DNA of 64,000 nucleotides from Mytilus edulis (GCF_963676685.1 NC_092346.1:6572001-6636000), one strand, 5' to 3'. Shown: positions 1,900 to 30,184, numbered from the stretch's first letter. A program made the numbers and translations. The notes: generated by a model not told the origin, from the sequence alone.

Positions 1900-2232
1900 G
1901 AGATAACTGTATTGTATTTTAAGCTCCGACGGCATCAATTGGGGATTTGATGGTCGTAAATTAAGTTTACTGGTGACGTGTTAGCGGAGACAGTAAACGT
2001 GTATTTGCAACCATCAAATCCATAATTGATGCAGTCGGAGCTTAAAATACAATATTGTTATCACCATCCTAATGAAACTGACAGAAAACAACGTTAAAAC
2101 ATGCATTTAAAATCTGTCATATGCTGTCTGCGCTTGCGCTTACGTCCCATAGCATCAATTGTCAATTGATGCCATGTATAAAAGTGACGTTATCCAATCA
2201 AAATTAACGTTACAAACGTTGTTGCATTAGAA
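1900..2232. repeat. Fold-back repeat (~165-bp palindromic head); second copy at 2623-2815
   Basis: gagataac...ttttaagctccgacggcatcaatt...gatggtcg mirrored by ccatcaaat...aattgatgc..tcggagcttaaaa...gttatc. Confidence 0.75.
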
Positions 2233-2849: not shown

Positions 2850-3066
2850 CAGGATATCTTGGGAACATGTGATTCCATTGTGATTGGTTGATTCTGTGTT
2901 TGCTTTTTAAGTCCTTCAAGTTGCAATGCTCTTTTTTCAGTGAGGCATATAAACATGTTGGATCAAATTCACTATCGAAGAAAGTTCTAGCTGCCCGTGG
3001 AGAAATTCCTGTTAGTAACAAACTCATTCTAACATAGTTTTCTTCCTCTGTTGAAAGCGAGGCCAT
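2850..3066 (-). CDS. HEPN(DZIP3-like)-nSTAND3-ankyrin family gene, copy A, first coding exon
   Basis: ATG at 3066, MASLSTEEENYVRMSLLLTGISPRAARTFFDSEF...QWNHMFPRYP, GT donor at 2849. Collinear with the paralogous exon at 29973-30184. Confidence 0.85.
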
Positions 3067-3577
3067 CCTGTTGGATGTGCTCATCAGAGGAATGAACTGG
3101 TATAACAAAGTTATAGACTGGCTCCTTTGGCACAGGAGATTGGATGAGCATTAGCTGATATTTAATTAACAGATACTGATCTATAATTGGCTGTCATGAT
3201 GAAAACTGTCTAGATGAACTGCACCCTTTATGATGACATCTGACAAAAATCTGGAACTATTCCTGAAAAAGAATGTTTTGAAATTACTTAACTGATGGCT
3301 ATATGATCTCCTTCATAATTTTTAAGTCTTCTTTTAATGGAAGTAGCTGTATAGACCATACATAAGGAGGTCTTATCCCAAAATCCTCAGTTTATCTTTG
3401 CTTTATCTCTAATTTTTTCAATTTTAATTCAAAATGTGCCCTCTTTAGGTTTGTGGTATGAGTGATCACTGCCACAGTGACTGGCATTATTCTGTAAATG
3501 AATTGCTGACGGACCTTGTTTCATTCGGTATTGTTTCTGTGTAAAAATATCCTCTGGTTTATTGATTTTTAATTTAA

Positions 3578-6565
3578 GGGCATCCGATACAGTTTCTCGA
3601 TATAATGTCATTTTTATAATTTTGAAATATGTTGTAGGCCTTGGCGAGTTATAAAATAAAACACAAAATAAAACATAGGTTACCGTGCTTGTTTTCGAGA
3701 AAATTGAGGCTGAAAATTGGGGATTTGTGCAATTTTGTAAAAAAATTAGGTAATGTTATAAAATTTTTGGAGCAGATATTCTTCGTCGTAAATTATTAAG
3801 ATCGGGTTCAATCTGAAGCTGTGATAAGTGGCAATAAGGAAAAAAATAAATCACTATACGAATAACTATAAAATTATTCAAGTCTTGCTTGACATTGCGG
3901 ACCAGATGCTCAAAGTGGTATTTTTCTAAACCTAAAAAAATGGAAAAAAACTGTTTCTGAAAATGTCATTTTTATCATTTTTCTGCATAAACTGCATTTT
4001 GTCATGCTTTCTCTAAATCTCAAATAAAAAAATATAGGTCACCGTGCTGGATTCCATGATAATCACGATTTATCCTAAAAAATTGCGTCACCCCTTTGTA
4101 ACCTCAACGTTAGCGCTAAAGTGCATGACGTGGCTGGCAGACAATTTCGACGTTATCGCTTCAAATTACCGGCGATATTTTTCAGATGTATAAATGTTAC
4201 TTGTAAAGTACTATCTATAAATTGGTAACATTGTTTTCGGAAGTAAAATCATGTGAATAACAAATACCTCTCTGTGTTTGTGGTCTAAGTGAGAAACTTC
4301 TCAAGAAAAGTTATTACGGACTGTTGATTATTTTTTACTGCTTTCAAAAATTTAAGACTCGGCAATTTAGAACATGACATACAGGTACATTTACTGTACA
4401 CACTCGTATATTATTTCATACTGTATGATGACCTCTAGATGTTGTTCTTTGTTTTGTTTTGTTTGGTTGGCTGCTGTTTCATTACACATACTCCTTAATT
4501 AATATCCTTTAATTCACGTTTTTATCACTGAGAAAATCCGTTTTTGTTGATACGAATTTTAAAAAAGTTAGCGTCGTTTGGACAGTAATCAAATTTGCCG
4601 TTTCTTTTCTCGTTTGAGTTGTTTTACCTTGTCATTTCGGGACCTTGTATAGCTGACTATGCGGTATGGGCTTTGCTCATTGTTGAAGACCTATAGTTGT
4701 TAATTTCTGTGTCATGTTTGTCTCTTGATGAGAGTTGTCTAATTGGCAATTATACCACATCTTCTGTTTTATGTGGTCAGAAAACAGAAGCAAAATCTTA
4801 CAAAGGAGAATCTTCAATTTGCTAATGGATGCTTTTGTCCAGACAGAAAAACTATAATTTTGAAATTTTTGATTTGGCAAAAAATGACTGAATTAATAGC
4901 GAGAGGACTGGATATATTACGGTTAGTTGCAATTAAAATCATTCTCTCATAGCGTAATTTTATTGGTAAATAACTATATATATTTTTCACCACAGCGCGT
5001 ACATAAAATACCGCATGTCCATTCCCCTGTCTGTCCTTCCGGACTTCTGGTTAATCAGATTTTTCAAATGTACAATTCTTGCCAACTTTCTATAAAACTG
5101 ATATCGTATGGACACGTTCGAAAATCAGTGCATATCAACTATTCTTTAAAAGAGTTATGCCATTCGGAAATATTAATTATATTGAAAATTGCATTGTATT
5201 TTCTGTCATTCCGTCATTTCTATAATATATCTATAAAAAAAAATAAAGAAAAAATAAACAGCTGCGCTAAGAGCGCATGATACGCCCTTCGTCTCATGAA
5301 AAAAAAAACCAACATAATATATGTTTTTAAAATATAACACGGGGGTTGTACGGAAGTCATGCTAGGTATATCCTGACTCATTCATTATTCTTGCTCAATA
5401 ATAAGTTTATATATCACAACATGTTTTATATGATCCCCAAATTGAAGCTCAATAAAAATTCAAGAACTCAAAAATGAATTAAAGAATCATCACAAAAAAG
5501 TATACAGATCTTAAGAATAATTTAACTAAAAAGTATGTGAAGTTCTATGCAATTATTATAGATAGTTTCTGAGATACGGCGCGACATGTGAACCCCCAGC
5601 CCCTTTTTGTCATAAACTCAATAACTCTAAAATCAAATTCTGAATCATTCTCAAAAGTATATACAAGTTCTTCAGAATTATATAACTAAGAAGTGCGTAA
5701 AGTTTAGAGCAATAGTCATAAAACGTTTTCTAGATGCAGCGCAAACTGTAAAAAAACCTGTTCTAGTTACAAAGTCCTGTAACTTATAAAGTTCACCAAA
5801 AATGATACAGACCGTTTGACCATCATGACTGAAAAAAACAACCATGTTCAGTTTAATGATAATATGATGTACCATATTTACGACGGACAGACGGACGCGG
5901 GCATTTCTATACCATTTTACGTCCCGTAAATTTTTTTACGGGTGCATAAACATATTGTTTGCTATTGCCTTTTGTTAGATAAACTACGTGCAACGTGGAG
6001 GAAATAGAAACTTTATTCTTTTATAAAAGTTGTATCATATTGTTTGTATTAGCGGCAGTCCATTATTTTTTGTTTACATAAATAAATTAAATAAATTTTT
6101 CAGAAAGGAAATTGACTTCTTCGTGTACATACATTTTCGGTATTAGTTTTTAAATATCATTGGTTTTCTGTGCTGTAATAAAAAATCGGATCCGGACCAA
6201 ATCCGATGCATGATAATAAAATTTTAATTGACATGCATGATATTAGGAACACCAAAAGGGTCAGTCGTCTTGAGATTGCTCACTATACGATATTTGTTGA
6301 AGATCTCAAGGAAACAGTAATGTGTTTTATTTCTTATTATGTTATTAGACTGTTATCCTGGTATAATCAAATGCACTGACTAATATTAATGGCGTAGAAA
6401 TTAGCATGCGGGAGAAACAGAAATTGGAGCATGGAAATTCCACATTACGTTTCGTATTACGGAAAATGACACGCATTACGTCCCGCAAAAAGTGACGTTT
6501 TGCGGGAATTCAAACGCTTAACGTCGCGCCAAGAGTTAACTCCCTTGAAACTGTATCGGATGCCC
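3578..6565. mobile_element. Non-autonomous TIR DNA transposon, Kolobok-like (3.0 kb, with nested repeats)
   Basis: 19-bp perfect TIR GGGCATCCGATACAGTTTC / GAAACTGTATCGGATGCCC, TTAA on both sides. Confidence 0.8.
5257..5950 (+). mobile_element. HINE-like element nested in the Kolobok-like transposon
   Basis: 5' palindrome gcgctaagagcgc, GACGGACAGACGGACG microsatellite, 3' hairpin cccgtaaa-tt-tttacggg. Confidence 0.55.
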
Positions 6566-10754: not shown

Positions 10755-10949
10755 TCGGATAAAATCCCCAGTATTCTTATAGGAGTTTTTTTTTTACAAC
10801 TGAGTCTTATTCTCATTACAGGGTCGGCAGTGAAATTAAAGAAGATAAAGCCTTTAAGAACACAGTTCTTTCATCGGGATAGTTCTTACAATTGGCTTTC
10901 TTAGATATTGTTGCCACCTCTGAAGTCTTCTAATGACGCCCTTGAAAAC

Positions 10950-11915
10950 TCAGTACCAGAATCTATGACAAACGAGACGATTTTAATTTTTAAATTATCA
11001 ATAACCCCCACCTTAGGAGCAATATACCAACTTCACTAAGCTCACTTGTATATCCGATATATACTTCCAAACTTATTCGGTATTCAAGAGCTTGCAGTTG
11101 CTACTCAGACTTTGTTAAACGTAATTAGTGTCTGATCAGAAAATTGACAAACCAGGGGTAAGTCAAAGAACGTCTCGTCCTTTTTCTAGAAAAAAAATAT
11201 CGCCGGTACCAAGATTGTTTTGATAAATATTCTGTATCAACCTCACAAATAATACACGATGGTCTTGACGTAAAGATTCTGGGTACCAACATTATTTATT
11301 ATCTTAATAACGTGTTATAGTATTCTTTTATTTGTCTTTTTGAATATTACTTTTATTGTTTAGTCTGTTTTTGGTGCTATCCATTTGACGTGGTTCTGTA
11401 CTTATACTATGATACATCCCGTCATTGGGTTATTGTGCTATGGTTAATTGTGTATTCTGGTGTTTCATTTTAGCGTACATGCTTTGTCTATATGTATTTG
11501 TTTCTTTGTTACATACTTTTTGATTTTATAGAGATTAAGACTATGACACAATGTTGACTGATGTATCCATATTTTGACATGTTTACCAATAATGTCTGTT
11601 TGTTTTGATTACAGATCGATTTTACGTTTTCAATATAATAGAATTTTATGCGACTGTCATATAAGTGAGAGGTTTATGTTGCTATAAAACCAGGTTTAAT
11701 CCTCCATTTTCTACATAAGGAAATGCCTTTATCAAGTCAGGAATAAGACAGTTGTTTGATGTGTTTGAGCTTTTGATTTTGTCACTTGATTATAAGAAAC
11801 TCTTCATTTTAAATTTTCCTCGGAGTATTTTTCGTGGTTTAACATTTTTCTCAGTTGTCAGTTTATTTTAGATCTATGAATTTGAAAGTCCCCCTCGTAT
11901 CTTTCGCCCCTTTTT
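10950..11915 (+). mobile_element. Degenerate fragment of the same Penelope family as 58.5-60.1 kb
   Basis: ctcagtaccagaatctatgacaaacgagacgattttaatttt matches ~58850-58890; similarity continues through the RT 3' end. Confidence 0.75.
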
Positions 11916-12191
11916 TACTATAACTCACATGTAAAAACTTTCAAATATTTTTTTTATGCATATTTACATCATGTAAGACTACCATGACTATCGTGGTAAT
12001 AGTTGTCATCAGCCAAGGCCTCTATGACTTTAATTTGAACTGCTCTCTCCAACAAAAAACTTTAGAATGACTTTTATAATTGTTCTCAATATTAATTATT
12101 CTCAATCGATTTATGAATTGCGAACAGCGGTATACTACTGTTGCCTTTATTTATAATATTCTTATTGGAATTTTTCACACCAATAAATATA

Positions 12192-12503
12192 GAAAAGAAG
12201 ATGTGGTATGATTACCAATGAGACAACTGTCCACAAGAGACCAAAATAACACAGACATTAACAACTATATGTCACCGTAAGGCCTTCAACAATGAGCAAA
12301 GCCCATACCGCATAGTCAGCTATAAAAGGCCCCGATATGACAATGTAAAACAATTCAAACGAGAAAACAAACGGCCTATTTGTGTACAAAAAATGAATAA
12401 AAACAAATATGTAACACATAAACAAACGACAACCAATGAATTACAGGCTCCTGACTTGGGACAGGCACATACATAGATAATGGGGCGGGGTTAAACATGT
12501 TAG
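12192..12503 (-). repeat. Distal 3' tail of the Penelope-like element / high-copy dispersed repeat
   Basis: gaagatgtggtatgatt(a/g)ccaatgagacaact...acaggctcctgacttgggacagg motif; related pieces at ~4600-4765, 29320-29450, 42955-43262 and 43895-44200. Confidence 0.7.
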
Positions 12504-13276
12504 TTGATGCAAACGTTCCGAGAGGCCACGAGGAGACCTTTCGGATACCTTCTGGTGGATCTGAAGGCCGCTACATCCGAACACTTGAGATTACGTAGCG
12601 ACGTCTTGGGCGGAGGCGAGGACGACGCCGAAGCCGAGGACGAAGACGTCGATTCCACCGGAAGCGAATCGAACACCATGGAACTCGGGGAAGAAGACGT
12701 CGGAAGCGAATTGGACCTGATGGCTTGCCGCGCATGCGGACTGGTATTTGCGCACGCCCGGGGACTCGAGATCCATCAAGAGAGGGACTGTGGCGACGAA
12801 CCATCCGCCAAACGATGCAGAACGGAAGACGACGGCGTGGAGGGAACCTACGTATACGAACTGGAGTGTTATCTCGAAGACCTGCCGGCAACCGTGTGTT
12901 GTATCGATGAACTGCCGGATGAAGTTTCGAACAGGCCCCGCAGTTTCGTCGTCAACACGGACGACTGCGACGGCAAGGGCATTCACTGGGTGGCGTTCCA
13001 CTTCCCGCGAGAGGGACCCGTCGAATTTTTCGATTCGTTCGGACGTTCTCCGGAGTATTACCTTCGTCGCTTCAGGAACGTGCTCATCGCCAATGGACCT
13101 AAATACAGATTCAGTACGACTCAAGTGCAACCGGGATCATCCGATACGTGCGGACTCTATTGTGTACATTTCGTGAAGATGAGACATAGAACCATTAGCA
13201 TGGAAGACATTGTGAAAGATTTTCGTCTAGAGACTTGATGAGTAACGACGACAAACTGCTTGCATTGTACGAATGA
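12504..13276 (+). pseudogene. Packaging ATPase C-terminus + acidic linker + CxxC/H zinc finger + adenain-like cysteine protease (fusion ORF, 3' part)
   Basis: ATRRPFGYLLVDLK (Polinton ATPase C-terminal motif), CRAC...H...C, NTD..GIHW..FFDSFG..VQ..TCGLYC. A 1-nt deletion near 13222 shifts the end; the true stop is 13274-13276 by comparison with the copy ending at 19501. Confidence 0.85.
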
Positions 13277-13464
13277 ATGTAATAAATATATATGAAACTG
13301 ACATCTGCGTTGGTATTTTTTCTATTTGCCCCGAACACGATACGATTAATCGGTGATTGATGTTCACATCATGAAGAGTTGCTTCCCTTTTTTGTATCAG
13401 AGTTCCTCGATACGATCACGTGACCTTGCCTCGTTGAATTGTCACTCCACGAGAGATATATATA

Positions 13465-14998
13465 TGTTACAGGCATTTTTCTAAATTTAGGCATTTTGTA
13501 AAATGACTGAAATTTTTAGGCATTTTCTAAAATGCCTGCATGATTTAGGCATTTTACAAATTGACTATTTTTTTCAGGCATTTTATAAAATGCCTGAAAA
13601 AAATGTAAGGCATTTTACAAAATGCCTAAAAGACTAAAAACTGAATGGAATGCACTCAAAATTTAACGACTTGAAATATCAAATAGATAATTCTATTATA
13701 TCATTTAATATAGCATGCAATTTAAACAGTTGCAGTTTTATAATTGTAATTAAATCATTTACATAAACACTGAAGATGACAATTAGTGTTGCTACATGTA
13801 ATGTTTGGGTGACAGCGACTGTTACATATTTGTTCTGACTTTTTGCAAAGACAACTCTTAGTGTTACATCTAGTCTAACCACTAGCACTACAGCCACATT
13901 TTGTGTAACCCTGACCATCACACAAAGAAACTTTACTGAAAGCTTTTTTAAAGGATATTTCATTATCATAATTGCAGATTGAATAGCAATAAAGTTCCTG
14001 CCAGACAGTTCAAACTGAATCCTGGTGTAACTTGAGTCCACGTAGTATTCCCAGTTCAATGAATTGGTGCATGCTAAATTTCCAGTGGCAAATATGTCAT
14101 GCATATTCAATAGGCCTATGAGACAACTTAATGGTAAAAGAAGTTGTTAACTCATTTTTTATGTGATTATGTCCTTGTTTTTACTTGACCAATTGTTAAA
14201 ATATTACTTGAGTGCATCATATTTTTATTTTCAATATTTTGCAAGATGAGCAATTCAGGAGTAGTTTCACAAAAAAATTACGACTAAGATTGATCGTAGG
14301 TCATGAACAATCCAGTATACTTACGATCAATCTTATTAATAAGTTTTTTGGTTGTGAAACCGACTCCTGGCTCCTAGGAGTCTACAGAATTGACACTTGT
14401 TTTGAAAACTTTTAAATAAGTTATAGCTCAAGAGAAGAAATGCACCTATTTTTGCATATGATAATAATCCGAGGAATGTCCTTTTATTCCAATCTTAACT
14501 TTGTTCAAAATAGTTTCATATTTTTCTCTGTTCCATATAACACGTTTCAATTAGTTGGTTTATAAATCTTTGTTCTGGTGTAAGAACAACATGCCCTTCT
14601 GTCATAATGAAAGAAGATCATTAATGAAATACAGAGTGAGTACTAACTCATAGTTGTTGCTCTATGGAGTTTCTAATTACAGACATTAAAACTAATAAAA
14701 CATGAAAATTTAACCTGCAGACTACATTTTTAAAGAATAATCTTAACTTTATTTTACTCAACCCTTCTTTGTAGCTTTACAATATATTTCTATCATCTAT
14801 TTCATGTATTTCATATTTACACAATTTGGTTGGATAAGGCAATTTGTGAAATTTTCATTAAAAATTTCAGGCATTTTACAAAATGACTAGTTTTTTTTAG
14901 GCATTTTCTAAAATGCCTGTCAACTTTAGGCATTTTAGAAAATGCCTGAAAATTCAGTCATTTTACAAAATGCCTAAATTTAGAAAATGCCTGTAACA
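13465..14998 (-). mobile_element. Ginger/KRBA2-type DNA transposon remnant inserted in the Polinton terminal repeat
   Basis: TIRs TGTTACAGGCATTTT...AAAATGCCTGTAACA with subterminal AGGCATTTT repeats, inserted in a TA run and absent from the sister repeat at ~19680. Minus-strand remnant GQGYTKCGC...C..KSCLCKK....CNSRCH. Confidence 0.75.
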
Positions 14999-15836
14999 TA
15001 TATATACAGAGTTGCTTTCCTTGTTTTGTACCAGAGTTAACGTTCCTCGATACGATCACGTGACCTGCTGTCCATATATGGTCATATATGTTTATTTTGA
15101 TTTTTGAGTGAAAATAAAAGTGTTTTTTTCCAAATTTGGTCATCATTTCCATATATGATCATAGGGTATCTGGTCGGTTTCCATATATGGTCATGTATTT
15201 TATTTTGATTTTTCAACGGAAATAAGGTTTTTACCAAATTTGGTCATGATTTCCATATATGGTCATAGGTCGTTTTGTCGATTTCCATATATGGTCATGT
15301 ATGTTTATTTTGAGTGAATATAAGGTTCTTACCAAATTTGGTCATAATTTCCATATATGGTCATAGGGTATTGTGGTCGCTTTCCATATATGGAATTCAT
15401 CATATGGTGTCCAAGAGTCATAATCCGACATCTGGTGCTTCCGTTTTGATATATAGCCCTTCATACTAGAATTGGCAAAGATCTACGTGAGTCATACTGT
15501 TCATATGACGTCAGCGCCTTAGCGCCTTGCGTTTTTGTGGTTGCATAAAACATCATAACGAACAGAAAAAATACTTCTCGAATTTTCATACGTACATCAT
15601 GGTATTGTCATGTAGTGAGTCATGTCCTGATCTTGCATCCTGATGATTCATGGTTGCGTCATGACCAAATATGACCGGCGTCCATCCGTCGTGATTCATC
15701 TTCCTTACTTCCGCTGACGTTATTAGGGCTAGTATATGCCCATATATCATATTGGGGGCGGGGCATGCGCATATGACGTCAGCGCCCTAGCGCCCTGTGT
15801 TTTTGGGGTGGCTCAAACTGAACCGTCCCTACTACT

Positions 15837-17352
15837 TGTGATGAGATGATTGAAGCTGTTAATTTTCTCCTTGTTAATATTTATGTACCTTTCGGCAACA
15901 AAGTTAATTGACAGGTTGTAGGTATCCCCATGGGCACTAATTGTGTCCCTTTAATAGCAGACTTGTTTTTGTACAGTTTATGACTTAACTCAGTAAAGAC
16001 CCGTAAAAAAGGCATTTAATTGATAAATTCAACAACATTTACCGTTATCTTGATATTTTTTCGTTAAATATTCAAGAATTTTCTCAATATACCGCTAAAA
16101 TTTACCCCAAGGAACTTACTTTAAGTAAATCAAATTTATACGGGAATAACTGTCCTTTCCTTGATTTCGATATTTCGGTTTTAAACGGGAAACTCAACAC
16201 TAAAATTTACGACAAAAGGGACGATTTTTCGTTCCCTATTGTTAGTTTTCCAATTTTAGATGGTGATGTTCCTTTGGCACCATTTTACGGTGTTTATATT
16301 TCACAGCTCGTTCGCTATGCCTGTGTCTGTTGTGACGTTTTTGATTTTAACGAACGCAATCTATGTATTACTCGTAATCGATATTGGATATCGTTACCAA
16401 TAAATTACTTAAAACTTTACTAAATTTTTCAATAGATATAAAGATTTGGTTTTGAAGTTTGGTTGTACCTGTAGAAAACTTATTTCAAACGGGATAGCAC
16501 AACCTCATTTTTACGGAAATGATGCTAACCGTGCCCGGAAATTTAGAAATGATCCTTGTAAACTTATCGCTTTTTAAAATAAACTTATTCTTAAAGGTTA
16601 TCAATCCAACACTGTAATAAGATCATTGAATATTTTTTTTATTGGTATATATATTGATTTTGTTAGGGACGACATCAAAAGTTCAATGTAGGATAAAAAA
16701 AAAAACTTAATTCACATAGTTTTTTCACTGACCCCCCCCCCCCCCCCCCCCCCACCACACCCCCTTCTTAACTTAATTTGGGAAAAATTGATTTACCAAT
16801 AGGGATATATGTATAAATCGATTTTAGATATACAAAACAGAATTTTACCCCCCCCCCCCCCCCACCCCCAAACTATTTGATTTAAAGTTTTTTTTATATT
16901 TCATCGATCTTTTGATGTCGTCCCTTATCAGTAAATTGAAAGCAAACTAAATCTTACTAGTATGTTATATGCATATACACATTCATGGATCTACAGTCTG
17001 TCGATACCTGTCACTTGGCATTGTACAAGGTCATGTTTTTCTCTGAATATTTATGACGTCTTTACACTAAATCAATTGGATGTTGGATGTGTACCTATTG
17101 ATAGTTTAGTCTTAGATGCATGATTTTTTTATTAGTTGTTAGTGGCTTTGAACTAGCTGTCAGATAACTGCGAACACTCTCAGATCTGTTCCTAGTGTCT
17201 TTTTGTTGTCGGGATGTACAAGTACCAGGCCACGTCCAATTGTATTTTTGTCATTCTGATGAGGTAAGCCTTTTCAACTGATTTTTATAGTTCGTTTTTA
17301 TGTTGTACTGTTATACCACTGTCCCAGGTTAGGGGAGGGTTGAGATCCCACT
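15837..17352 (+). mobile_element. Penelope-like retroelement, 3' part of RT and 3' tail (inverted continuation of 20520-21960)
   Basis: Begins TGT GAT GAG ATG ATT = CDEMIEAVNFLL.NIYV...QVVGIPMGTNC.PLIADLFL...YDK.DDFSFPI...SQLVRYA, with several frameshifts and stops. Confidence 0.85.
16666..16924. mobile_element. PIF/Harbinger-type MITE inserted in the Penelope 3' part
   Basis: 16-bp perfect TIR GGGACGACATCAAAAG / CTTTTGATGTCGTCCC, TTA target duplication, internal poly-C runs. Confidence 0.8.
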
Positions 17353-18192
17353 CGGATATATCTGTCTACCTAGCGTGGCGACGGGCTGGCGATCGACCAC
17401 AAATATAATATAATACAACTATAAGAACTAAACTACATAAAGAAAGTAATTAGTGGTAAGGAGAGGGACTCTTTTCTATGCGCATGATATTACTTTCAAT
17501 TATACACTTCGTGTTATTTTGGTTTTATTTTTATATTATAAGTTTTTATAAAAGATTTTAAAAATACAAACAATTATAAATCAAATTCTAACAATTCATT
17601 CTACTGTCTAGTTTAAATTGAGTTTCAAATATCATTCTTTAACAAAATCTATATTATCATACATATAAAGCAAGTTATTTGGGGTGAGGAAAGGGGACTC
17701 TCAATTCATATGCTATGTTTTTTTAATTATTAACGCCACGCCATTTTCTAAACTCATAAAAAATACTAGGTTTATAAAGTTGTTATAAATATTATAAAAA
17801 AATAAAGATTCAATTGTAATTAAAGTTCTTTCCACCATTGATATGAAAATATTAAATTTTGGATTTAAAATATTAATTTCAGCGTCAAATGATAACTTTC
17901 CAAAAAATATAAGGTGTCTATACAAAAAGATATAAATAACGGAGATAATTTTCTACTTCCGGTTTAAAATATGTTACTTCCGGTTCTGTCTTATAGTTTA
18001 CTTGACGCCGATTCCAAAAATATATGGTTTTACATACTTTTACAATAATTTATTACAACAATTAGCTACTTCCGGTTTACAAAAGGTCACTTCCGGTTAG
18101 ATTTTTCAACGTCATATTGCTTGCAATCTAATCCTACATGCCTTACACGTGTTGCTTAGTTCGTCTCCAAAACTATGTTTGACAGTTTCCCA

Positions 18193-18737
18193 GAGGACCA
18201 GGTAGTGACAGTTTCTCCTCTGAGTCGGATCTTTCCCGAAATACAGGTTCTGATTCACAGCCACCACCGACAGGTTCTAATGATGCGATCCTTCCGTGAA
18301 CAAGTCGTTGATGCGACGGTCTTTGGCCGAGGTCGACATCAGGTCGTCCAGCACGAGTAAGTTTCTGGTCCGTGCATCGAAGAAGTGGTCGGCTTCCAAC
18401 TTGGTCGGGATACCGCGAACGAATTCCACGGTGGGCACCACCGTCTTTCGAATCTCGTCGTAGAGGGGTTGCCATCGTCGGTACAGCCAGACGATCCTCT
18501 CCGGCACCGGGTTGCACATGGATCTTCGCAATGCTTCCTTCACGAAAAACGTCTTGCCGCAGGAAGTCGGACCGGAGACGATCATGGTGAACGGGTGTTG
18601 AAAACGAAATATTTCTTGCGTCGCATTTTGCGGTGGCGGCGGCGGCGGTGGTGGTTCGCCAGTACCATGCTTATTTCGATGATGTCTCAACATGACGTCT
18701 CTTTCGAAAACATTCTTTGACAGTTAGGACACTCCAT
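18193..18737 (-). pseudogene. C2H2 zinc finger + poly-Pro + A32/FtsK-like packaging ATPase (fusion ORF, 5' part)
   Basis: MECPNC...(frameshift)...MLRHHRNKH, Walker A GPTSCGKT, Walker B LLVLDD, FTEGSHH*NLS..QNLY..QRRNCHYLVL, then an abrupt break at ~18193. Confidence 0.85.
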
Positions 18738-18765
18738 CCTCACTTCAAGGGTGGAACTTTCCCTC

Positions 18766-19187
18766 TTATAACTTTTGTCGGAAATGAAGCAAGCAGAACA
18801 CGTGATCATCTTTCAACGGCACACGCGAAGTCGATCGTCTCTCAAGGTGATTTCCAATATTTCCGTCTCGCCTCCCCTCGACGCGAGGTAGAGCGGTCTC
18901 TCGAAAATTATCTCCGTGGTCTCTTCTTTTCTGATGGCTACGGATTGAAGCAGGGGCAGGTAAGTGTCTCTGACGTAAGATTCATCCCTTACCAGATCGC
19001 AACACACGTACATCCTCTGCGTAGACGTTTCAAAAGCCGGTACAAAGGTCATCTCCAACAGAGCACACTCCCACGTTCCTTTCATTAAGTGTGATCTAGG
19101 TAAACGTATTCTGAACTGTCCTCCCCTATTCTGGGGGAAAAGTTGGAGCGAGTCTCCACTATTGACGAATAAGTAAAACTCGTCCAT
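18766..19187 (-). pseudogene. Compact Polinton/adintovirus-type minor capsid (penton)-like protein
   Basis: N-terminal FYL..NS.DS...FP.N...F.I.LP....G.WE.AL.E and C-terminal YVCCDLV...PLL...PLY...EILEITLRD motifs. A frameshift near 18815 restores a terminal ...CLLHFRQKL*. Confidence 0.7.
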
Positions 19188-19262
19188 GGTTTTGATTAAG
19201 CATTCGATCCTCTTCCTCTTATAACCATCGCCGCCGCCGCCGCCGCAACCGCCGCAGCCACC

Positions 19263-20519
19263 TCGGACGTTCTCCGGAGTATTACCTTCGTCGCTTCAGG
19301 AACGTGCTCATCGCCAATGGACCTCAATACAGATTCAGTACGACTCAAGTGCAACCGGGATCATCCGATACGTGCGGACTCTATTGTGTACATTTCGTGA
19401 AGATGAGATATAGAAACATTAGCATGGAAGACATTGTGAAAGATTTTTCGTCTAGAGACTTGATGAATAACGACGACAAACTGCTTGCATTGTACGAATG
19501 AATGTAATAAATATATATGAAACTGACATCTGCGATGGTATTTTTTCTATTTGCCCCGAACACGATACGATTAATCGGTGATTGATGTTCACATCGTGAA
19601 GAGTTGCTTCCTTTTTTTGTATCAGAGTTCCTCGATACGATCACGTGACCTTGCCTCGTTGAATTGTCACTCCACGAGAGATATATATACAGAGTTGCTT
19701 CCCTTGTTTTGTACCAGAGTTAACGTTCATCGATACGATCACGTGACCTGCTGTCCATATATGGTCATATATGTTTATTTTGATTTTTGAGTGAAAATAA
19801 AAGTTGTTTTCCAAATTTGGTCATCATTTCCATATATGATCATAGGGTATCTGGTCGGTTTCCATATATGGTCATGTATTATATTTTGATTTTTCAACGT
19901 CAATAAGGTTTTTACCACATTTGGTCATGATTTCCATATATGGTCATAGGTCGTTTTGTCGATTTCCATATATGGTCATGTATGTTTATTTTGAGTGAAA
20001 ATAAGGTTCTTACCAAATTTGGTCATAATTTCCATATATGGTCATAGGGTATTGTGGTCGCTTTCCATATATGGAATTCATCATATGGTGGTCCAAGAGT
20101 CATAATCCGACATCTGGTGCTTCCGTTTTGATATATAGCCCTTCATACTAGAATTGGCAAAGATCTACGTGAGTCATACTGTTCATATGACGTCAGCGCA
20201 TTAGCGCCTTGCGTTTTTGTGGTTGCATAAAACATCATAACGAACAGAAAAAAATACTTCTCGAATTTTCATACGTACATCATGGTATTGTCATGTAGTG
20301 AGTCATGTCCCCGATCTTGCATTCTGATGACTCATGGTTGCGTCATGACCAAATATGACCGGCGTCCATCCGTCGTGACTCATCTTCCTTACTTCCGCTG
20401 ACGTCATTAGGGCTAGTATATGCCCATATATCATATGGGGGCGGGGCATGCGCATATGACGTCAGCGCCCTAGCGCCCTGTGTTTTTGTGGTGCCTCAAA
20501 CACCTCACTCCCTACTACT
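19263..20519. repeat. ~1.26-kb terminal repeat of the mini-Polinton (second copy 13039-15836); includes the 3' end of the protease gene
   Basis: Near-identical sequence from TCGGACGTTCTCCGG to CCCTACTACT in both copies. Confidence 0.93.
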
Positions 20520-21960
20520 ATCACACCTCCAGTAAGTATATCTACCATATTTACCTTTCTCATTAGAGAAGAAGGCTTTAAATGAGTTGCAGCAAATATA
20601 TTTGCATTCAGATTTACCAAACGACCATTTAATTAAATAGGAAAACTTTTGTGTAATAAGATAGTGTGGAATTGCAGTGTAAAGAGTAGAAAAATCAAAA
20701 CTGTCAACCGAACAAAAAGGACCATCAAAAACACGTAATTTATCTAAAACATCCAAAGATTTTTTTACACTCCAAAAAAGGTTTATATCACTATGTTCAT
20801 ATATTTTTGCTCTTCTACTTCGCACTTTATTTGACCTTTTTAACTTTTTTGGATTCGAGCGTCACTGGTGAGTCTTTTGTAGACGAAACGCGCGTCTGGC
20901 GTATATACTTAATTTAGTCCTGGTATCTATGATGAGTTTATTTATTACAATAGTTTATGATAAGCTCTTTAATAGTAGTTAATGAACTTGTTAAAAGCAC
21001 TGAAAGATTAGTTGTAGATAAAGGCAACAGTAGTATACGGCTGTTCAAAACTCGCGTAAACGATGGACAAAAAATAAAATCGGGGTAACAAACTAAAACT
21101 GAGGAAAACGCATTAAATATAAGAGGAGAACAACGACACAACATTAAAATCAAACACACACAGAAACGGACTAAGCATTAGACAAAATCCGATGTAGAAC
21201 ACTTACTAGAGGCCGAGATGAAACGATATTTAAATGGTTTTTTGTTGTTGTGTAGTTTAGGTAGCCAATACATAGTAGAAACCTTCAAATGTTCAGAAGA
21301 AGTCTTAAGCTTTGATGTGGTTGTGATATGTTTGTTTACTATATGACTCTCTGTGGAGCGGATGGACTTCAATGTAGATAAATTTGAAATTTCATTCTTA
21401 AGAACGTCCGTGTAGTAATTACGGCATACCACCACATTGTTGTCTGCTTGGTAGGCCGGTACAAACACAACCCGCTTTGAAATTTCTTTAAGTTTATTTC
21501 TTATTCTGGAAATCGGTGTATTATGTACTCTATTATTTAATTCTAAATTATTTTCAAAATGTAATATTCTCTTATCTACCACATTCATACATTTATTTAA
21601 ATAAGAATCGAGAGGTTTTTTTTTATCAGATTTTCCTTGTTTACACCACTTTTTACAAAACGAGGAAAGAGCATCGTTGGTGACTTGACTACACTCTTTC
21701 CAATCTATTTTAGATGGAAAACGATATTTTGGTCCTTTTTTCAAAACGTTTTTAACCTCTCTGTCCTGGACGATATTGAGATCCCCTGTAATAACATGGC
21801 CATAAGGGACATATCTAAATTTCGACAATTCACAGTTTCAAGTTAAGGGAGTATTATTATCTATATTCACGTCTGATGTAACCGATGTATAATTAAAAAT
21901 TAAACTTCTGCTGGTTTTTTTTGTATGTGTATAAAATTATAGGTGGTTCATCAAACAACT
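20520..21960 (-). mobile_element. Penelope-like retroelement, degenerate, 5' part of RT ORF
   Basis: ORFs 21178..21828 (GHVITGDL, KGPKYR, YWLPKLH..P.KYRFI) and 20505..20825 (DSFDFSTLYTAIPH), interrupted by small insertions; ends at ...YTYWRCD (TGTGAT). Confidence 0.85.
20857..20902 (+). ncRNA. Hammerhead ribozyme copy with core mutation (CUGGUGA)
   Basis: gagcgtca-ctggtga-gtcttttgtagac-gaaa-cgcgcg-tc-tggcgt; lies in a short insertion inside the Penelope RT. Confidence 0.65.
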
Positions 21961-22009
21961 TTAGTCCTTGTTATAATAGTTATCAAAGTTACCAGGATTA
22001 TAATTTAGT

Positions 22010-22055
22010 ACGCCAGACGCGCGTTTCGTCTACACAAGACTCATCAGTGACGCTC
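22010..22055 (-). ncRNA. Minimal type I hammerhead ribozyme
   Basis: Minus strand GCGUCA-CUGAUGA-GUC(UUGUGUA)GAC-GAAA-CGCGCG-UC-UGGCGU: complete core, stem I, stem II and a short palindromic stem III. Confidence 0.8.
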
Positions 22056-22796
22056 ATATCAAAATAGTTATAAAGCCAAACAAATACAAAGTTGAAGAGC
22101 ATTGAGGATCCAAAATTCCAAAAAGTTGTGCCAAATACGGCTAAGGTAATCTATGACTAACATTGGAATTACTCTCATTACAGAAGACCTTATGGAAACT
22201 CAAAGGATAATTTCTAATGAAAAAAGACCTCACCATTACCCTTATAAAGGGCTTATAATGACTGGTGCCAGTGCTACATATATATCTACATTTCCCCTAT
22301 ATTCATATATTGGAACAAACATAAAAAAATCTTTCTCAAAATAAGAAAAGTACAAATATTTTACTGATAAGACAACAAATACATAGTAATATATGCTTGA
22401 CATAATAACATAAATAATGTGATCATTGAATACGTTAAACATTTACAGGACAACTATATTTTTGAAAACTATTCCCTCCTCTGTTTCAAAATAAGAAGCT
22501 TGATAAAAGACTTTTAACACTGGAAGGTCGTCAGTATCATTGTTTTTGCGATAAAACTAATTGAAAATTTGGCGGGAAAAGATTATCTCTGGATTTTTTC
22601 ATTCATTTGATAATGGCACTTATTTTCTTTCAAACACAATGATTAGTTGGTCTTTTGAAAAGTGGCGGTATTTCCCTTCCATTTTTTTCAACAGCAATAT
22701 AATCCTGTTTAACCACAGGTATCTATAGTTTCTACACAATTTTGCCTGTAAAATAGGAGATTATTTGCAACTTCCACCTGATCGAAAGACATTATT

Positions 22797-25290
22797 TCAC
22801 ATTTTTTTCTGACTTGAATGTTGATTAATAATATTAACTATATCTTTGTAACCTTTTCTAGTAGCAAAAGTTAAAGCTGATTGACCCTCAGAGTCACATC
22901 TATTATAGTTTATCCCTCTTTCTAGCAACAACTTTACTATGTCTTCATGTCCGAGCTCACAAGCCTTCATTAAAAGAGACGCACCCTCATCATCAAATAA
23001 ATTCTGGTCTCCACCTCTATCTAATAATATTGATACTACTTCTGCATGACCATTATCACATGCCTGCAATATATGTGATTGGCTTATCCTCTCACATTTA
23101 TTATAATCTGTGCCTCTGTCTAACAACAACTTTACTATTTCTATATGTCCCTGTTCACAAGCTATCATTAACGGCGACTCATGCCAATCATCACATTTAT
23201 TATAGTCTGCTCCTCTGTCTAATAGCAACGTTACTATTTCTGAATAATCATTTTCACAAGCCACCATTAAAGGTGATTTACCGCCCCTGTCACATTCATT
23301 ACAGTCTGCTCCCTTGTCTAACAATATCTTTACTATGTCTGAATGATCATTTCCACATGCCTTCATTATAGGTGACTCAGCCCACATGTTACATCCATCA
23401 CAGTCTGATCCTCTGTCTAACAACATCATAACTATTTCTGTCTGACCATGTTCACATGCCTTAAGTAAGAGAGACTCACCATCATCGTCCCATATATTAT
23501 GGTCAGCTCCTCTGTCCAATAACATCATAACTATTTCTGTATGGCCTTGCTCATAGGCGATCATTATCGGAGATTGACCCAACCTGTCACATTTGTCATA
23601 GTCGGCTCCTTTGTCTAACAACATTTTGGCTACTTCTATTTCACCACGTTCACAAGCTTTCACTAAAGTTGGCTCTTCCGAACTGTTACATTTATTATAG
23701 TCTGCTCCTCTATCAACCAACATCTTCACTATTTCGGTATGACCATGTTCAAACGCTTTCCTTATAGGTGACTTATTAATATCATCGCATTTATTAAAGT
23801 CTGCTCCTCTGTCCAACAACATTTTTACTATTTCTGTGTGACCATATTCACAAGCCTTCATTAAAGGTGACTCGCCGTCATTATCACACTTAGTATAGTC
23901 TGCTCTTTTGTTCAACATTATCTTTACAATTTCTGTATGACCATTTTTGCAAGCTGTCATTACGGGTGACTCGCCATATAAACTGCATCGTTGACTGTCT
24001 GCTCCACTGTCTAACAACATCATTACTATTTTTGTATGCCCATTTTTACAAGCTTTCATTGCAAGTGACTGACCATAATCATCATATTTATTGTAGTCTG
24101 CTCCTCCTTTTAACAACATTTTTGCGATTTGCGTATGACCATATTCACACGCCACCATCAAAGGCGACTGTCCCCATATATCACATTCGTTACAGTCAGC
24201 TCTTTTGTCTACCAATTTCTTTACTATTTCTGTATGACCAAGTACACAGGCCTTCATTAATAGTGACTGGGCCAAGTTATCACATCTAATAAAGTCTGCT
24301 CCTCTATCCAACAGTAACTTTATTATTTCTGTATGACCATGCTCACAAGCCTTCATAACAGGTGACTTCCCATCATTATCACGCACATTACAGTCTGCTC
24401 CTGTGTCTAATAACATCCGTACAATTTTTGTATAACCACGCTCACAAGCCTTCATTACAGGTGACTCATTTTCACCATATGTATTATAGTCTACTCCCCT
24501 GTTTAACAATATCTGTACTATTTCAGCATGATTATGTTCACAAGCTTTCAATAAAGGTGAATGACTATAATCATCTGTTTTATTACCGTCTGCTCCTCTT
24601 TCTAACAAGATCTTTACTATTTCTGTATGACCGTGTTCACATGCTTTCATTAAAGGTGACTGGCTATCATAATCGCATATATTAAAGTTTGCTCCTCTTT
24701 CTAACAAGATCTTTACTATTTCTGTATGACTGTGTTCACAGGCTTTCATTTAAGGTGACTGGTTATCATAACTGCATCTATTAAAGTCTGCTCCTCTTTC
24801 TAACAAGATCTTTACTATTTCTGTATGACCGTGTTCACATGCTTTCATTAAAGGTGACTGGCTGTCATAATCGCATATATTAAAGTCTGCTCCTCTTTCT
24901 AACAAGATCTTTACTATTTCTGTATAACTGTGTTCACAGGCTTTCGTTAAAGGTGACTGGTTATCATAACTGCATCTATTAAAGTCTGCTCCTCTTTCTA
25001 TCAAGATCTTTACTATTTCTGTATGACCATGTTCACAAGCCTTCATTACGGGTGACGCACTTTCATCATCACATCTATTAAAGTCTGCTCCTCTTTCAAA
25101 CAAGATCTTGACTATTTCTGTATGCCCGTGTTCACAGGCTTTCATTAAAGGGGACTCATCAAAATAAATATAGTTGTTAACATCCACACCCAAATCACAA
25201 CACCATAAAACCAAAGAAATGTCACCCATAATGCAGCATTTTAAAAGAACATCATAACCGTCATCATGAAGAATATTTGTTTTAAGTTTA
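22797..25290 (-). repeat. Ankyrin-repeat coding array (99-bp units, ~25 repeats)
   Basis: Repeated SP(L/V)MKACEHGHTEIVK(I/M)LL(E/D)RGAD motif in ORFs 22797..24749 and 24750..26048. Confidence 0.95.
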
Positions 25291-28200
25291 GGCTGATCAC
25301 AAATATGTGCTAGCTGTCTCTGGTGAGTTATATCTAATGTATCTAAATGAAGCATAAAGTGTCGTCTGAATTGTTGCATCTTCATATTGATGTTACTAAA
25401 TACATCTTGAACTTTCCCTTTTGACCAGTCATCAATCATTCTCTGTATGTACATTTGGTGATATGTTGGTGGTATAATAGTTAAAAACTGATCCATCTCA
25501 TCGGTGCATGCTAATAAAAACCTCTCCTGGATCAGACTACTATCTGCATTCTTTATCAAACATTGTATTATTTTCTGTCCAAAGAAGTAAGCAAGAAAGT
25601 CAAATATTTTATCATGTATTATCTTGTACATGTTTCCGACTTTCCTGATGAATGTATCTTTAAGCGAGTTCAGTTCATGCCGTAATAAAAGCCTTGGTGT
25701 TGTCCTATCCAGTCTACATGCTTCACATGTGTCTTCAATAATAATCCTAGTTTCTACATTTACCTCATCTACCAATATTTCATCGTTCAATTTGTTGTTA
25801 AATATGACACATAAAGCCAGAGCACAATATTTAGTGTAATGCCCTTTCTTGAGTAGCTGGTCAATTTCTGCTTCATAAACTGTAAATGGATTCTGGAAGA
25901 AATCTTTAACGTTAGGTCTAGGACTATCATGGTATAATTTACATAAAAGAGGAAAACAATCATATAAATCACTATATCCAGTAATCTCAGGAACTTTCGT
26001 GTTTAGATATAAATCTGCTATTGATTGTTTTTCAGTTTTAACAAACATATATTTTCTGACAAGAGGTTACATTCACATGACTTGAAAACTGACAAAGATT
26101 CAAATTGTTTATCCTTATATACGTGTAAGTGACAAGCAGCAATAATTCTTGTTCGTTTATTTCCAAGAAGCTTTTTGATATCCTCCATGACAGGTTCCCA
26201 ACGTTTAATGTCACGCTGTTTAACAGAAAAGTTTCCGCAGAAATCATCAATAACAAACAATATTTTTTCTCTAGGATTGTAAAACCTCACAATGTCACAT
26301 GGCTCTGTAACCAGAAGAACATTAAACTCTTCCTCGGCCATTTGTAAAGCTACATGTCGGAGAATGGCTGTTTTTCCTACACCAGAGCTAGCAGTAATCG
26401 TGACACAGTTGTGTTCCTTTATACATTTGAATACAAGCTTGGCAGCTCTTGTTTTTATAAACATCTTATCATCATTTTCCTTCCAGGCTTTAAGCGTTTC
26501 TTTAAATCTTGCTAAAATATGAACAAGGAACATTTCCTTATAATTTTCATTTATACAAGTAATAGCCCGAGATTAAAATATTTGTATTGACATATTCATG
26601 TGCCAAAAAAAACCCTTAAATAATCAATGTCGTTCAAAAAATAATCTTCTAACAATTTCAAAACATTAGCACATTAAGTTAAAACATCTAACATTCAAAA
26701 TATTAACCTGTTTGACTGTTTACGTTTAACAGTTTATTCTCTTAGCGTTAACCTTCGACATTCAAAAAGATAATATGTTCTCACAAAGTCTACCTTTATA
26801 GCTCCTTCATTATTACCCGACTTGAATTTAAAAGAAGTAAATCACCTAAAACTATACTATTTTATTTCTTGTAAGACTTCATAGAACCTGCAAATTCAAC
26901 CTTCATTTTTTTATATATATAAAACACATGTCATAAAAATAATCTCAAACTTACCTCTTATATTACAAGGAACTGTATCATCGTAGGACGTTTTCAACCT
27001 TTTAATTTCATCTGTCATTTCAGTATGATCCTCTTGGAGTTCTTCATAAGATCTTTTCAGTTCTCTATGGTCTCCTTCGAGTAGAAGTTCATGATATATT
27101 TTCAAACTGTTTAGTGACTCTTTTAGATTCTTAATTTCATCGTTAGAGCATTTAATATCCTCTATTATTTCTTTGTTTGTTTGATCCAGTGTTCTGATTC
27201 TTAGATGATCACAGTCCTGTTTTATTTTCTGTCCACCTAATCTCCCAATGGCCTATAAAAATAGAATCCAAAAAAATACTGAACTCCGACGAAAATTGAA
27301 AAAGGAAGTCACTTATCAAATGGCAAAATCAAAAGCTCAAACACATCAAACGGATTGATAACAACTGTCATATTCCTGACTTCGTACAGGCATTTTCTTA
27401 TGAAGAAAATGTGGGATTCTTCCTGGTTTTATAGCTAGCTAAACATCCCACTTGTATGACAGTCGCATCGAATTCCATTATATCGATAACAATGTGTAAA
27501 CAAAACAAGCAGACATAAATAAATGGGTAACAATGTAAAATAATAGGCATATAGCAGTCAACATTGTGTTATAAACTTAATCACTGTGAAAACAAACAAA
27601 TATGTAACAAAAGAGCACATAAAGGCATATAGACAAAGCACATAAGCAAACATTAAAGATTAGAATACAAAAATAAATCTAAAGTACAATAACACAATGA
27701 CGGGATGTATGAGTAGTTTGTGGGGTTCGTATTGCTTATTCTTTAGTTTTCTATGTTGTGTCATGTGTTCTATTGTTTATCTGTTTGTCTTCTTTCATTT
27801 TTAGCCAGGCGTGATCAGTTTATTTTCGATTTATGAGTTTGACTGTCCTTCTGGTATCTTTCGTCTCTCTTTTATTAATCTATAATTTTCACAAAAAATA
27901 AAAACTGTCTTTGCATGTCCTATTACTAATAATAAATTTCATGTCAATTTATAGACAATTTAAATGCATGATACAACTCCGTATATGTCTTTTTTTGTAC
28001 ATCTGTAAATAAAAAGTTCATTGCATTGTTTTGTATACAAGAGTATATATAAACAAAAAAACGATTTAGTATATCTTTCCTTTATGAATAAAAGTATAAC
28101 AAAAGTTTATGAGAAACTGGTGTTAATGCTGGTATCACATAAAGTAAAACTTCACATTATTAATAATCTATAAAAACGAGGCCAGGGTCAAAAACGCATT

Positions 28201-30184
28201 TTAGCGACAGTAAGTGCATACGTCTATTTACTGTGGGTTCATTTCTTTTGGTGGATAGAGGAAAAACTTGCATGTTCGTGGATATTTGATTACGTGGTTT
28301 TGGCGAAATCTGCATTCACACCGTCAGCAAATTTGTAATTCGTTGAACTTTTAAATTCGTAGTTTCCCTATATACACGAAATCCACGAAAACTGGTATCC
28401 AACGAATACTTCTAGTACAATTAATCCACAGTAGATCCCAGCAGTTGGCATCATAATTGTTATCCAGTTGAAAAAAATAATTCTGAAAACCTGTATTTGC
28501 AATCAAGAAAAACAAATGTTTAATCATGAACAAACTGGAAACTTGTCTATAACAGAGCAGATCTGATAGCTTTAATAGCACTTAATGGAAACAGGTTTCA
28601 CTAATATATCTTACTCCAGTTATAATGTCCCACGCAGCGTTGAAGTCTATGCTTCTTACTTTCCCACCATCCAGTTGAGCCAGGTAGTTCCGATAGTATT
28701 CGATTCTAGCTAAATCTGTACCTGGTGTGGTTTCCATGGCAGTGGGTAAACAGCCAAATCCACCCTGATGATTGGTTATGTTCTTCATGTGTCATAGAAG
28801 TGTAATCATTAATGTAATGTCAAATGTCTTGGATTTCGGATCATCTGAAAAAAATCAATAATTACATCATTCATAAGTGTTTGTTCTTTGTATTGATGAA
28901 TTAAGTATTTACCAACTGATTTTTTTTTTGGTTTGTTGTTATGTTGTGCTGTTACACTACTGTCCGGGGGTTGATTGCTCCACACATGTTTAACCCCACT
29001 ACGTTCTATATGTGTCTGTCCCAAGTCTGTAGTTTGGTCGTTGTCATAGGTTCATGTTTGTCATATTCGCTTTTCGTTAATTGTTTTATTGTTCAATTAT
29101 GCCGTTATATAAAACATGATTTTAGCATGATTAAATAATTTCTCTTTCGATCATACTACTGACTCAGTGGTAATTGTAATTGTATGAGCTCTTATCTAGT
29201 TTATTTGTTCATGCTAATACAATAGAGCATTATTCATTTGTTGAGCTAAGTAAATCTCTTACTTGAAATTCAAAATAATGAAAACAGGAAGTAGGCGTCT
29301 AAAAGGCTTTTTTTTTATAGCTGACTCTGCGGTATGGGCTTTGCTCATTTTTAAAGGCTGTACGGTGACCTATATTTGTTAATTTCTGTGTCATTTTGGT
29401 CTCTTCTGGAGGGTTGTATCATTGGCAATCATACCACATCTTCTTTTTTTTATATCTCCATCAAAGTCACAATGTATCAAAGGTTGACAATTACAGGATA
29501 AAGTGCGGTCGTCAACTCAAGCCTTAACTCACACCGAACAGCAACGTTTAAAGGGTCCCAAAATTGAGATTCTTACACAAGATCTTATAAAAAAGTAAAA
29601 TCACAAAAATAACTTCCAGGAAAATTCAACAGGAAAGTCTCTAATCAAATGGTAAAATCAAAAGCTCAAACACATCAAACGAATGGACAACAACTGTCAT
29701 ATTCCTGACTTGGTACCGGTATTTTCTTGCATAGAAAATGATGGATTAAACCTGATTTTATAGCTAGTTAAACTTCTCACTTGTATTACAGTCAAATTAA
29801 ATCCCATTATATAGATAACAATGTGTGAACATACAGACACAATAGGTTAAAATGTCAATACTAGGGACCCGAACAGCAGTCAACATTGTGTTATTGTCTT
29901 ATTCACTTTTAAAACAAAAAAAAGATATTAACAAACATTAAAAAGGTGATTAATCTTGCTTTGTGAACTTACGAGGATATCTTGGAAACAGGAGGTTCCA
30001 CTGTGATCGGTTAATAAGGTGTTTCGTTTTTAAGAAAAGCAATTTGTTGTACTCTCAATGAAGCAGATAAATATCTTGGAGAAAATTCACTATCAAATAA
30101 TTTTCTAGCTGCTCGTTTAGAAATTCCTGTTAGTAATAAACTCATTCGAATATAGTTTTCTTCCTCTACAGAAAGGGAGGCCAT
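22797..30184 (-). pseudogene. HEPN(DZIP3-like) - coiled coil - nSTAND3-like NTPase - ankyrin repeat NLR-like gene, copy B; exons 30184-29973, 28844-28615, 27252-26955, 26511-22797
   Basis: Canonical GT/AG sites with consistent phases. Walker A ASSGVGKT, Walker B ILFVIDD, ~25 ankyrin repeats. Lesions: 5-nt deletion frameshift near 30056 (relative to copy A), in-frame TGA 28794-28792, HEPN His>Gln (RNYLAQ), frameshift near 26040, TAA 24752-24750. Confidence 0.85.

Follow-up and report, generated by a model that had tools for sequence, protein, structure and literature searches.

A short, decayed Polinton with long terminal arms in a Naiad retroelement of Mytilus edulis, and its possible origin as a mini-element mobilised in trans

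We investigated a short element of the Polinton/Maverick type in Mytilus edulis, located in a 64,000-nucleotide stretch of repeat-rich eukaryotic DNA (GCF_963676685.1 NC_092346.1:6572001-6636000; the window) with 32.7% GC and no gaps. The element, about 4.2 kb long once two later insertions are discounted, integrated into the reverse transcriptase (RT) gene of a Naiad (Penelope-like) retroelement with a 6-bp target-site duplication, and carries a penton gene and an ATPase-protease fusion between two long terminal arms. We regard it as probable, rather than assured, that it belongs to a non-autonomous, copy-back-like lineage of mini-Polintons, derived from polintoviruses/adintoviruses and mobilised in trans.

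The right end of the element reads ACTACT at 15831-15836, followed by TGTGAT at 15837-15842 (+), and the other end reads ACTACT at 20514-20519, followed at 20520-20525 by ATCACA, the reverse complement of TGTGAT; the two copies of the target-site duplication (copy 1, 20520..20525, minus strand; copy 2, 15837..15842, plus strand) are thus the same hexamer, a match with a chance probability of ~5e-4 at the base composition of the window. An earlier note on this DNA had taken these ends, each abutting the hexamer, for a single integration that on rejoining of the flanks restores a Penelope RT frame, and we confirm both. The 5' part of the target RT gene lies at 20526..21837 (-) and the 3' part of the decayed gene, with its tail, at 15843..17349 (+). 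The frame ...RYTYWR at 20526 (-) is taken up by EMIEAVNFLL from 15843 (+), and Naiad-Amil, which reads ...RYTYFSCRELCLAIVFLIDNIYVRFG there (Fig. S1 of PMC8557442), leaves, by eye, space for exactly two residues, that is, for the hexamer once; by the same visual comparison, the RT3-IFD-RT4 region of the target agrees with the Naiad alignment of that figure. Because the hexamer is identical at both ends and one continuous Naiad RT frame runs across them, the element integrated once, into the Naiad RT gene, duplicating 6 bp of the target. Terminal inverted repeats with (AGT)2//(ACT)2 ends, a Polinton hallmark, are present along with the duplication; according to the vertebrate survey in PMC8097293, Polinton ends are of the (AGT)2//(ACT)2 or (AG)3//(CT)3 type, the former, with 6-bp duplications, being the commonest Maverick termini.

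Two terminal arms of 1,257 bp each, 97.7% identical, make up 60% of the element DNA and include the 3' portion of the protease, features that the earlier note had not described. The left arm, with the (AGT)2 end, spans 19263..20519 (-), and the right arm consists of an inner part at 13039..13464 (+), overlapping the protease 3' end, and an outer part at 15007..15836 (+) with the ACTACT end. When the arms are compared, 13039-13464 aligns with 19263-19689 at 98.1% identity and 14998-15836 with 19681-20519 at 96.7%, with 29 substitutions in 1,253 aligned bases (2.3%) and six indels of 1-2 bp in all; one substitution is common to both arms and absent from five relatives. The arms now stand in direct rather than inverted orientation because of a later inversion, described below, and an inversion has also turned Polinton repeats direct in C. 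elegans, as reported in 10.1101/2024.01.15.575659. Each arm contains the last ~78 protease codons, and the left arm carries, besides this fragment, a poly(A)-like AATAAA (19506) and ~109-bp subrepeats. As a separate observation, 19642-20457 and the matching right arm hold eight CC(A/T)6GG, three TGACGTCA and four TGA(C/G)TCA motifs, counts reached in 0 of 200 shuffles, with many of the sites sitting in the internal subrepeats and hence not independent. We take these motifs to be CArG-type, CRE-type and AP-1-type sites, respectively, resembling those of animal transcription factors, and the cluster is possibly an enhancer.

The first gene inside the left arm lies behind a 75-bp leader (19188..19262, -), with a GGC run at the arm junction and a TATA-like TATAAGAG at 19223 that may act as a promoter. 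It encodes, judging by its predicted fold, a minor capsid penton with a single jelly roll (~140 codons, 18766..19187, -, with a frameshift near 18813). Pfam has no family for this open reading frame (ORF), for which a homologue search gave 2,551 representatives at E<=0.001, and the fold was tested on a model of the natural homologue P0010 (67% identical, pLDDT 64). The top match of this model was the PBCV-1 capsid chain 6ncl_a6 (Z 9.9, rmsd 4.2, 138 aligned), with Sputnik 3j26_N (Z 7.8) and the mavirus penton 6g41 (Z 7.7, rmsd 3.9, 122 aligned) also found; 6ncl_a6 and 3j26_N we take to be pentons as well. The best viral match was a protein of Drosophila-associated adintovirus 2 (E 3.7e-8, TM 0.68), and the nearest named Atlas cluster is the Sputnik minor capsid V18/19. 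The modelled homologue thus supports the assignment of the ORF at 19187 as a compact single jelly-roll penton, in line with the penton-like ORF of the earlier note.

The packaging ATPase follows in pieces. Its 5' part, with a C2H2 finger and a Pro run, occupies 18193..18737 (-), with Walker A at 18573-18550, Walker B at 18360-18343, a frameshift near 18700-18708 and an in-frame stop at 18277-18279. Comparison with homologues identified 16 further codons at 17350..17397 (-), and about four codons are gone at each of two breaks; the deletion of ~25 ATPase codons at the inversion, as assumed before, is rejected, given that 16 of ~24 survive. The remainder lies at 12504..13276 (+), where homologues and Pfam delineate, in one frame, the C-terminal tail of the ATPase, an acidic linker, a C2H2 finger (12726-12776) and an adenain-type protease; the frame opening at 12504 comprises 244 codons, with a frameshift near 13220-13226. 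The protease retains its His at 12984 and Gln/Cys motifs at 13122-13163, and matches adenain (PF00770) at E 2.4e-6, above the curated cut-off. For the ATPase piece in the window, the matches to Adeno_IVa2 (E 5.7e-4) and Pox_A32 (E 0.007) are both below cut-off, and many ATPase homologues have PF04665.

Two large window pieces are identical at 128/133 and 230/241 positions to P0017, a 413-residue protein representing a 19-member cluster from Mytilus galloprovincialis, which the adenovirus proteinase 1avp matches at E 0.0019 (the model of P0017, with pLDDT 39.6, was too low in confidence to use). Among the best 120 of 326 matches to a fused query, the protease domain also occurs in 11 ATPase relatives, from M. 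galloprovincialis, M. coruscus and ENA/JGI records; in a quick tree of 71 of 117 rows, fused forms with a full core make up one weakly supported group (SH-aLRT 86). Because the P0017 cluster is 95-96% identical to the window pieces and fused relatives recur, the C2H2-ATPase-C2H2-adenain fusion, already noticed in the earlier note, is, as far as protein comparison goes, a natural one. A side observation concerns a Gly-rich motif directly 3' of the ATPase domain (12594-12617, +) that occurs often in the fused clade: 5 of 6 parsed fused forms, all 4 truncated members of the clade and 8 of 73 others have a GxG/GG motif after the ATPase (34 of the 117 rows were unparsed). It might be a polyprotein self-cleavage site, although only 2 of 6 motifs fit the adenain consensus. 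Together, the ends, the duplication, the penton, the ATPase and the adenain-type protease bear out assignment of the element to the Polintons/Mavericks.

Penton, ATPase and protease, the three genes present between the two ends, account for all element DNA between the arms, leaving there no ORF and no space for a protein-primed family B polymerase, and no space for an RVE integrase. Polymerase-region frames of L001, a contig described below, had no match in the window, nor did the integrase-bearing tails of P0082 and P0075, and the 23 polymerase/integrase-region queries together found nothing there at E<=0.01; a double jelly-roll major capsid protein is likewise missing from the accounted DNA, with no capsid query made. 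Penton-ATPase adjacency recurs in P0008 and P0003, and the ATPase-protease fusion in P0017 and P0001, so the junction of the left arm with the penton is the only possible site of core-gene loss. At this junction, 75 bp separate the arm from the penton ATG, the join falls at the GGC run, and the left arm opens with a 78-codon protease 3' fragment (19265..19501, +) that is antisense to the penton, has no start and lacks the catalytic His.

The present layout reflects several later events. One side of an independent repeat copy at 28894-29074 corresponds to 17257-17324, and its other side to 12399-12500 in reverse; because this copy spans both sides of the break, 12504-17349 (~4.8 kb) can be identified as an inversion, with the retroelement tail continuing beyond it at 12169..12501 (-). 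The left break (12502..12504) was placed by this continuity, and the right break (17350..17352) shares 3 bp of AGT microhomology with it. Both breaks lie in unique sequence, and the retroelement tail is reciprocally continuous across them. The microhomology is the same triplet as in the end motif of the element, probably by chance. The ATPase is further split by ~795 bp of foreign, unclassified AT-rich DNA (17398..18192, ~27% GC), at which we saw no target duplication. The right arm is interrupted by a 1,542-bp Ginger2-like non-autonomous DNA transposon (13465..15006), recognised from its TGTTA...TAACA ends, ~170-bp inverted repeats and TA-rich target, a pattern taken from PMC2836005, and containing a decayed Cys-rich coding remnant at 13901-13878 (-). 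At this insertion, a TA run is duplicated over 8 bp, versus the 4 bp reported for Ginger2 (PMC2836005).

Without the two insertions, the element DNA amounts to (3,170-795) + (3,333-1,542) = 4,166 bp, in agreement with the ~4.2 kb of the earlier note and short of the 13-25 kb that is a hallmark of Polintons. In the reconstruction given there, 12504 and the excision of 13465-15006 stand, and the right break, set at 18193 (-), lies instead near 17350, 17398-18192 being foreign DNA. Every gene of this copy is broken, the penton and protease by frameshifts and the ATPase by a frameshift, a stop, an insertion and the inversion break, and the copy makes no functional protein. An Rfam search of 11800-22200 found nothing.

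The region is repeat-rich and is represented by the assembly alone, without reads, so it might be asked whether the halves come from two elements or haplotypes, with the inversion a misjoin. We consider such a composite or artefact highly improbable: both ends carry one 6-bp duplication within an unbroken RT frame; the ATPase pieces to either side match the single protein P0017 in colinear order at 95-96% identity; the breaks lie in unique sequence, share 3 bp of microhomology and leave the retroelement tail reciprocally continuous; and both arms share the substitution absent from five relatives.

For the origin of the element, we propose a model that starts from a full-size element whose right end comprised the penton, the ATPase-protease fusion and the terminal repeat. 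During protein-primed strand-displacement replication, a template switch or panhandle repair would have put an inverted copy of this right end in place of all sequence left of the penton leader; the left arm would start mid-protease and antisense because it was copied from the right end. The resulting unit of ~4.2 kb would keep both (AGT)2 origins/integrase sites, and a full-size element could supply the polymerase and RVE integrase to copy and insert it in trans. The inner end of the left arm, of no use to such a unit, may have been trimmed in some copies, and a divergent subfamily may have traded arms with the lineage as far as the arm boundary. Such a unit, or its progenitor, would be what inserted into the Naiad RT gene, leaving the 6-bp duplication, after which it decayed by ~1% change per arm, the frameshifts and stop, the Ginger2-like and AT-rich insertions and the ~4.8-kb inversion.

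This model draws on relatives of the element. The closest proteins are M. galloprovincialis records, 95-100% identical, and the sizes of the clusters named for that species (19, 3, 5 and 1 for the A type; 3, 1, 1 and 1 for the B type) point to a multi-copy family. One penton record, P0007 (a 5-member cluster, on a 397-kb contig), has as its N-terminus antisense A-type protease corresponding to 12968-12869, with gaps of 13, 8 and 10 nt, which runs on into the GGC run and the same penton leader (score 39 versus at most 6 in 22 control segments). Its junction endpoint lies ~170 bp deeper in the protease than that of the window copy, and its three gaps within ~100 bp are more than the indels between the window arms would predict (6 events per 1,253 bp; P ~0.013), as would be expected of an older vestige rather than decay of the window insertion. 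The B-type subfamily (P0001, P0003, P0004, P0005) has an ATPase that the tree places well apart from the A type. The proteases of P0017 and P0001 agree at 37/56 residues upstream of the arm boundary and, starting at the boundary, at 76/78 (Fisher p 7.7e-7), the last difference being the codon where the left arm of the window copy ends. Among five control pairs, four had no significant change there (p 0.11-1.0) and one falls (p 0.008). Homogenisation that stops at the arm boundary would fit the pairing of two such arms during replication, analogous to panhandle repair of the adenovirus type. An explanation of the arm region as merely a conserved part of the protease was rejected, the controls being 54% identical inside it versus 64-66% upstream. 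At the protein level, the other records thus favour the earlier proposal that the element was already short when it integrated and that its mobilisation took place in trans.

The same records bear on a plainer account, which we consider unlikely yet worth serious thought: an ordinary full-length Polinton, with repeats that naturally held the protease 3' end, inserted here and then lost polymerase, integrase and major capsid through a single deletion that began at the internal border of the left repeat and reached the penton leader, stopping within the GGC run. Several points weigh for it or against a copy-back origin. In Pieris, full-length polintons have repeats of ~2 kb that include adenain and hexon (10.1101/2025.02.07.637071), and because of this precedent a protease in the arm does not by itself prove copy-back; 1,257 bp falls inside the known repeat range of 46-1,447 bp, and 96% of vertebrate Maverick loci are degraded, making decay the usual fate (both PMC8097293). 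The locus has been hit by several other rearrangements. The antisense arm/protease signal occurs in P0007 alone of 280 proteins screened, and P0007, 100% identical to the window penton over 122 residues, may represent another allele of this insertion or an oddly spliced gene model. P0006 (a 922-bp contig) has a different, non-arm leader upstream of the same penton, and the B-type P0003 and P0009 have no readable arm sequence upstream. All the evidence from other copies consists of predicted proteins without DNA context. Finally, intact fusion ORFs with conserved catalytic residues persist across lineages 57-70% identical, implying that an element of some kind, in the simplest case full-length, keeps them under selection. 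Against these points, the deletion would have to start, by coincidence, within 1-2 bases of the identity switch between A and B types, and P0007 would call for a second coincidence, an A-type arm extended by ~170 bp and carrying three gaps.

A different reading treats the element as one segment of a divided (multipartite) polintovirus, in which penton, ATPase and protease lie on one arm-bounded segment and polymerase, integrase and major capsid on other segments with the same ends, all mutually needed. Near-identical ends on divergent internal modules fit this idea, as do the many copies that keep an intact fusion ORF (the 19-member cluster), which pure parasites need not do, and the weak grouping of fused forms in the partial tree. 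We saw no complementary segment, a full-size Mytilus adintovirus map is among those listed in Fig. S2 of PMC8502044, and L001, the one relative with DNA context, has polymerase beside ATPase on one molecule; a divided genome therefore appears very improbable. L001 is a 5.7-kb contig in a Bathymodiolus symbiont record, probably host DNA in a symbiont bin, and was the one locus out of 576 pattern matches in a single scan of prokaryotic genome contigs. At 1140-5687 it carries a frameshifted Polinton polymerase and an unfused ATPase, 51% identical, and has no matching arm DNA. As a helper L001 was rejected for its different layout, in which the polymerase adjoins an unfused ATPase without an intervening penton.

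Returning to the copy-back mini-Polinton, a broader proposal, which we hold to be doubtful, is that mussels harbour a family of ~4-kb copy-back units in which a penton and ATPase-protease module is under selection and termini are swapped between divergent subfamilies, serving either as gene-bearing satellites of an animal polintovirus that provide their helper with morphogenesis proteins or as a segment of a divided polintovirus genome.

The surroundings of the element have features of their own. The Naiad copy appears to be 5'-truncated near 21837, its frame is broken by 20860-21170, and an inverted pair of a host repeat, 82% identical, lies in and beside its 5' part (20808-20933 / 21982-22101). 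Pfam has no family for the retroelement RT pieces, and neither the PDB sequence search nor Atlas gave a name to the RT piece. A second RT copy in the window (58431-59003) matches only the right flank and cannot bridge the insertion site; 58431-59300 and 10946-11407 are two more, more divergent Penelope-like RT fragments. One kb from the Naiad target, 22797-26572 (-) encodes, over three frames, an nSTAND3 NTPase (PF20720, E 2.8e-24) with a long ankyrin array, which looks like a bivalve immune-type STAND gene. Elsewhere, there are recent local duplications (45745-45948/48505-48708, 97% identical; 47978-48161/48809-48992, 100%) and a 283-codon open frame at 37099-37950 (+) with a weak PAP2 match (E 0.031).

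Repbase lists some non-autonomous Polinton entries. In the literature searched, with subscription papers and Repbase outside its scope, we found no ~4-kb gene-bearing Polinton, no ATPase-adenain fusion and no sharp exchange of termini between subfamilies; the fusion clade and the exchange are real features whatever the answer to the mini-element question. Should the short copies prove to be independent insertions, Polinton polymerase and integrase would act in trans on a unit that keeps only the ends, the cis-acting needs would be bounded to a 1.26-kb arm, and panhandle-type end repair, so far assumed for Polintons by analogy with adenoviruses, would be on record. Such short units would be lost from standard surveys through filters on size and gene content, such as removal of elements under 10 kb (PMC4028283) or a requirement for all five core proteins (PMC10748475) or for PolB (PMC8502044).

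Compared with known systems, the element works like a non-autonomous Polinton and stands outside the autonomous family in its size and in lacking polymerase, integrase and major capsid. With bivalve Polinton ATPases (Mytilus, Mya, Mercenaria, Pecten, Pinctada and L001) it shares the C2H2-Pro-run-ATPase-C2H2 architecture, these being 41-65% identical to P0001, but 109 of the best 120 have no protease domain by this screen, and in L001 the ATPase faces away from the adjacent polymerase. Copy-back defective genomes, panhandle-repaired adenovirus mini-genomes and MITE-like transposons likewise keep their ends, one copied from the other, and obtain enzymes in trans; the mussel unit differs in that it integrates and keeps morphogenesis genes, any interference with a helper, as in the satellite- or defective-interfering-like reading of the earlier note, being conjectural. 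It shares with Polintons/Mavericks (Polintoviricetes; 'adintovirus', PMC8502044) the (AGT)2//(ACT)2 ends, the 6-bp duplication, long inverted arms, penton, packaging ATPase and adenain-type protease, but measures ~4.2 kb, as against 12.7-24.6 kb for intact vertebrate elements (PMC8097293) and 13-25 kb in general (PMC10748475), and has a fused ATPase-protease, a compact penton of ~140 residues and part of the protease in its arms. Tlr1 of Tetrahymena, for which alone wording on non-autonomous Polintons/Mavericks turned up in the sources searched (PMC5499653; it formerly went under the name of a non-autonomous Polinton), is also Polinton-related and without pPolB. It has genes of its own for integrase, helicase and major capsid, however, and is nowadays classed as a Polinton-like virus (PMC5499653, PMC4028283). 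Closest in one respect are the Pieris/Euchloe polintons described in 10.1101/2025.02.07.637071, which have adenain in their terminal repeats and include related polB-lacking elements that are apparently still mobile; those elements are at least 12 kb long, duplicate the whole of hexon and adenain and have lost only polB, whereas the mussel element lacks three core genes, duplicates the protease in part and carries no cargo.

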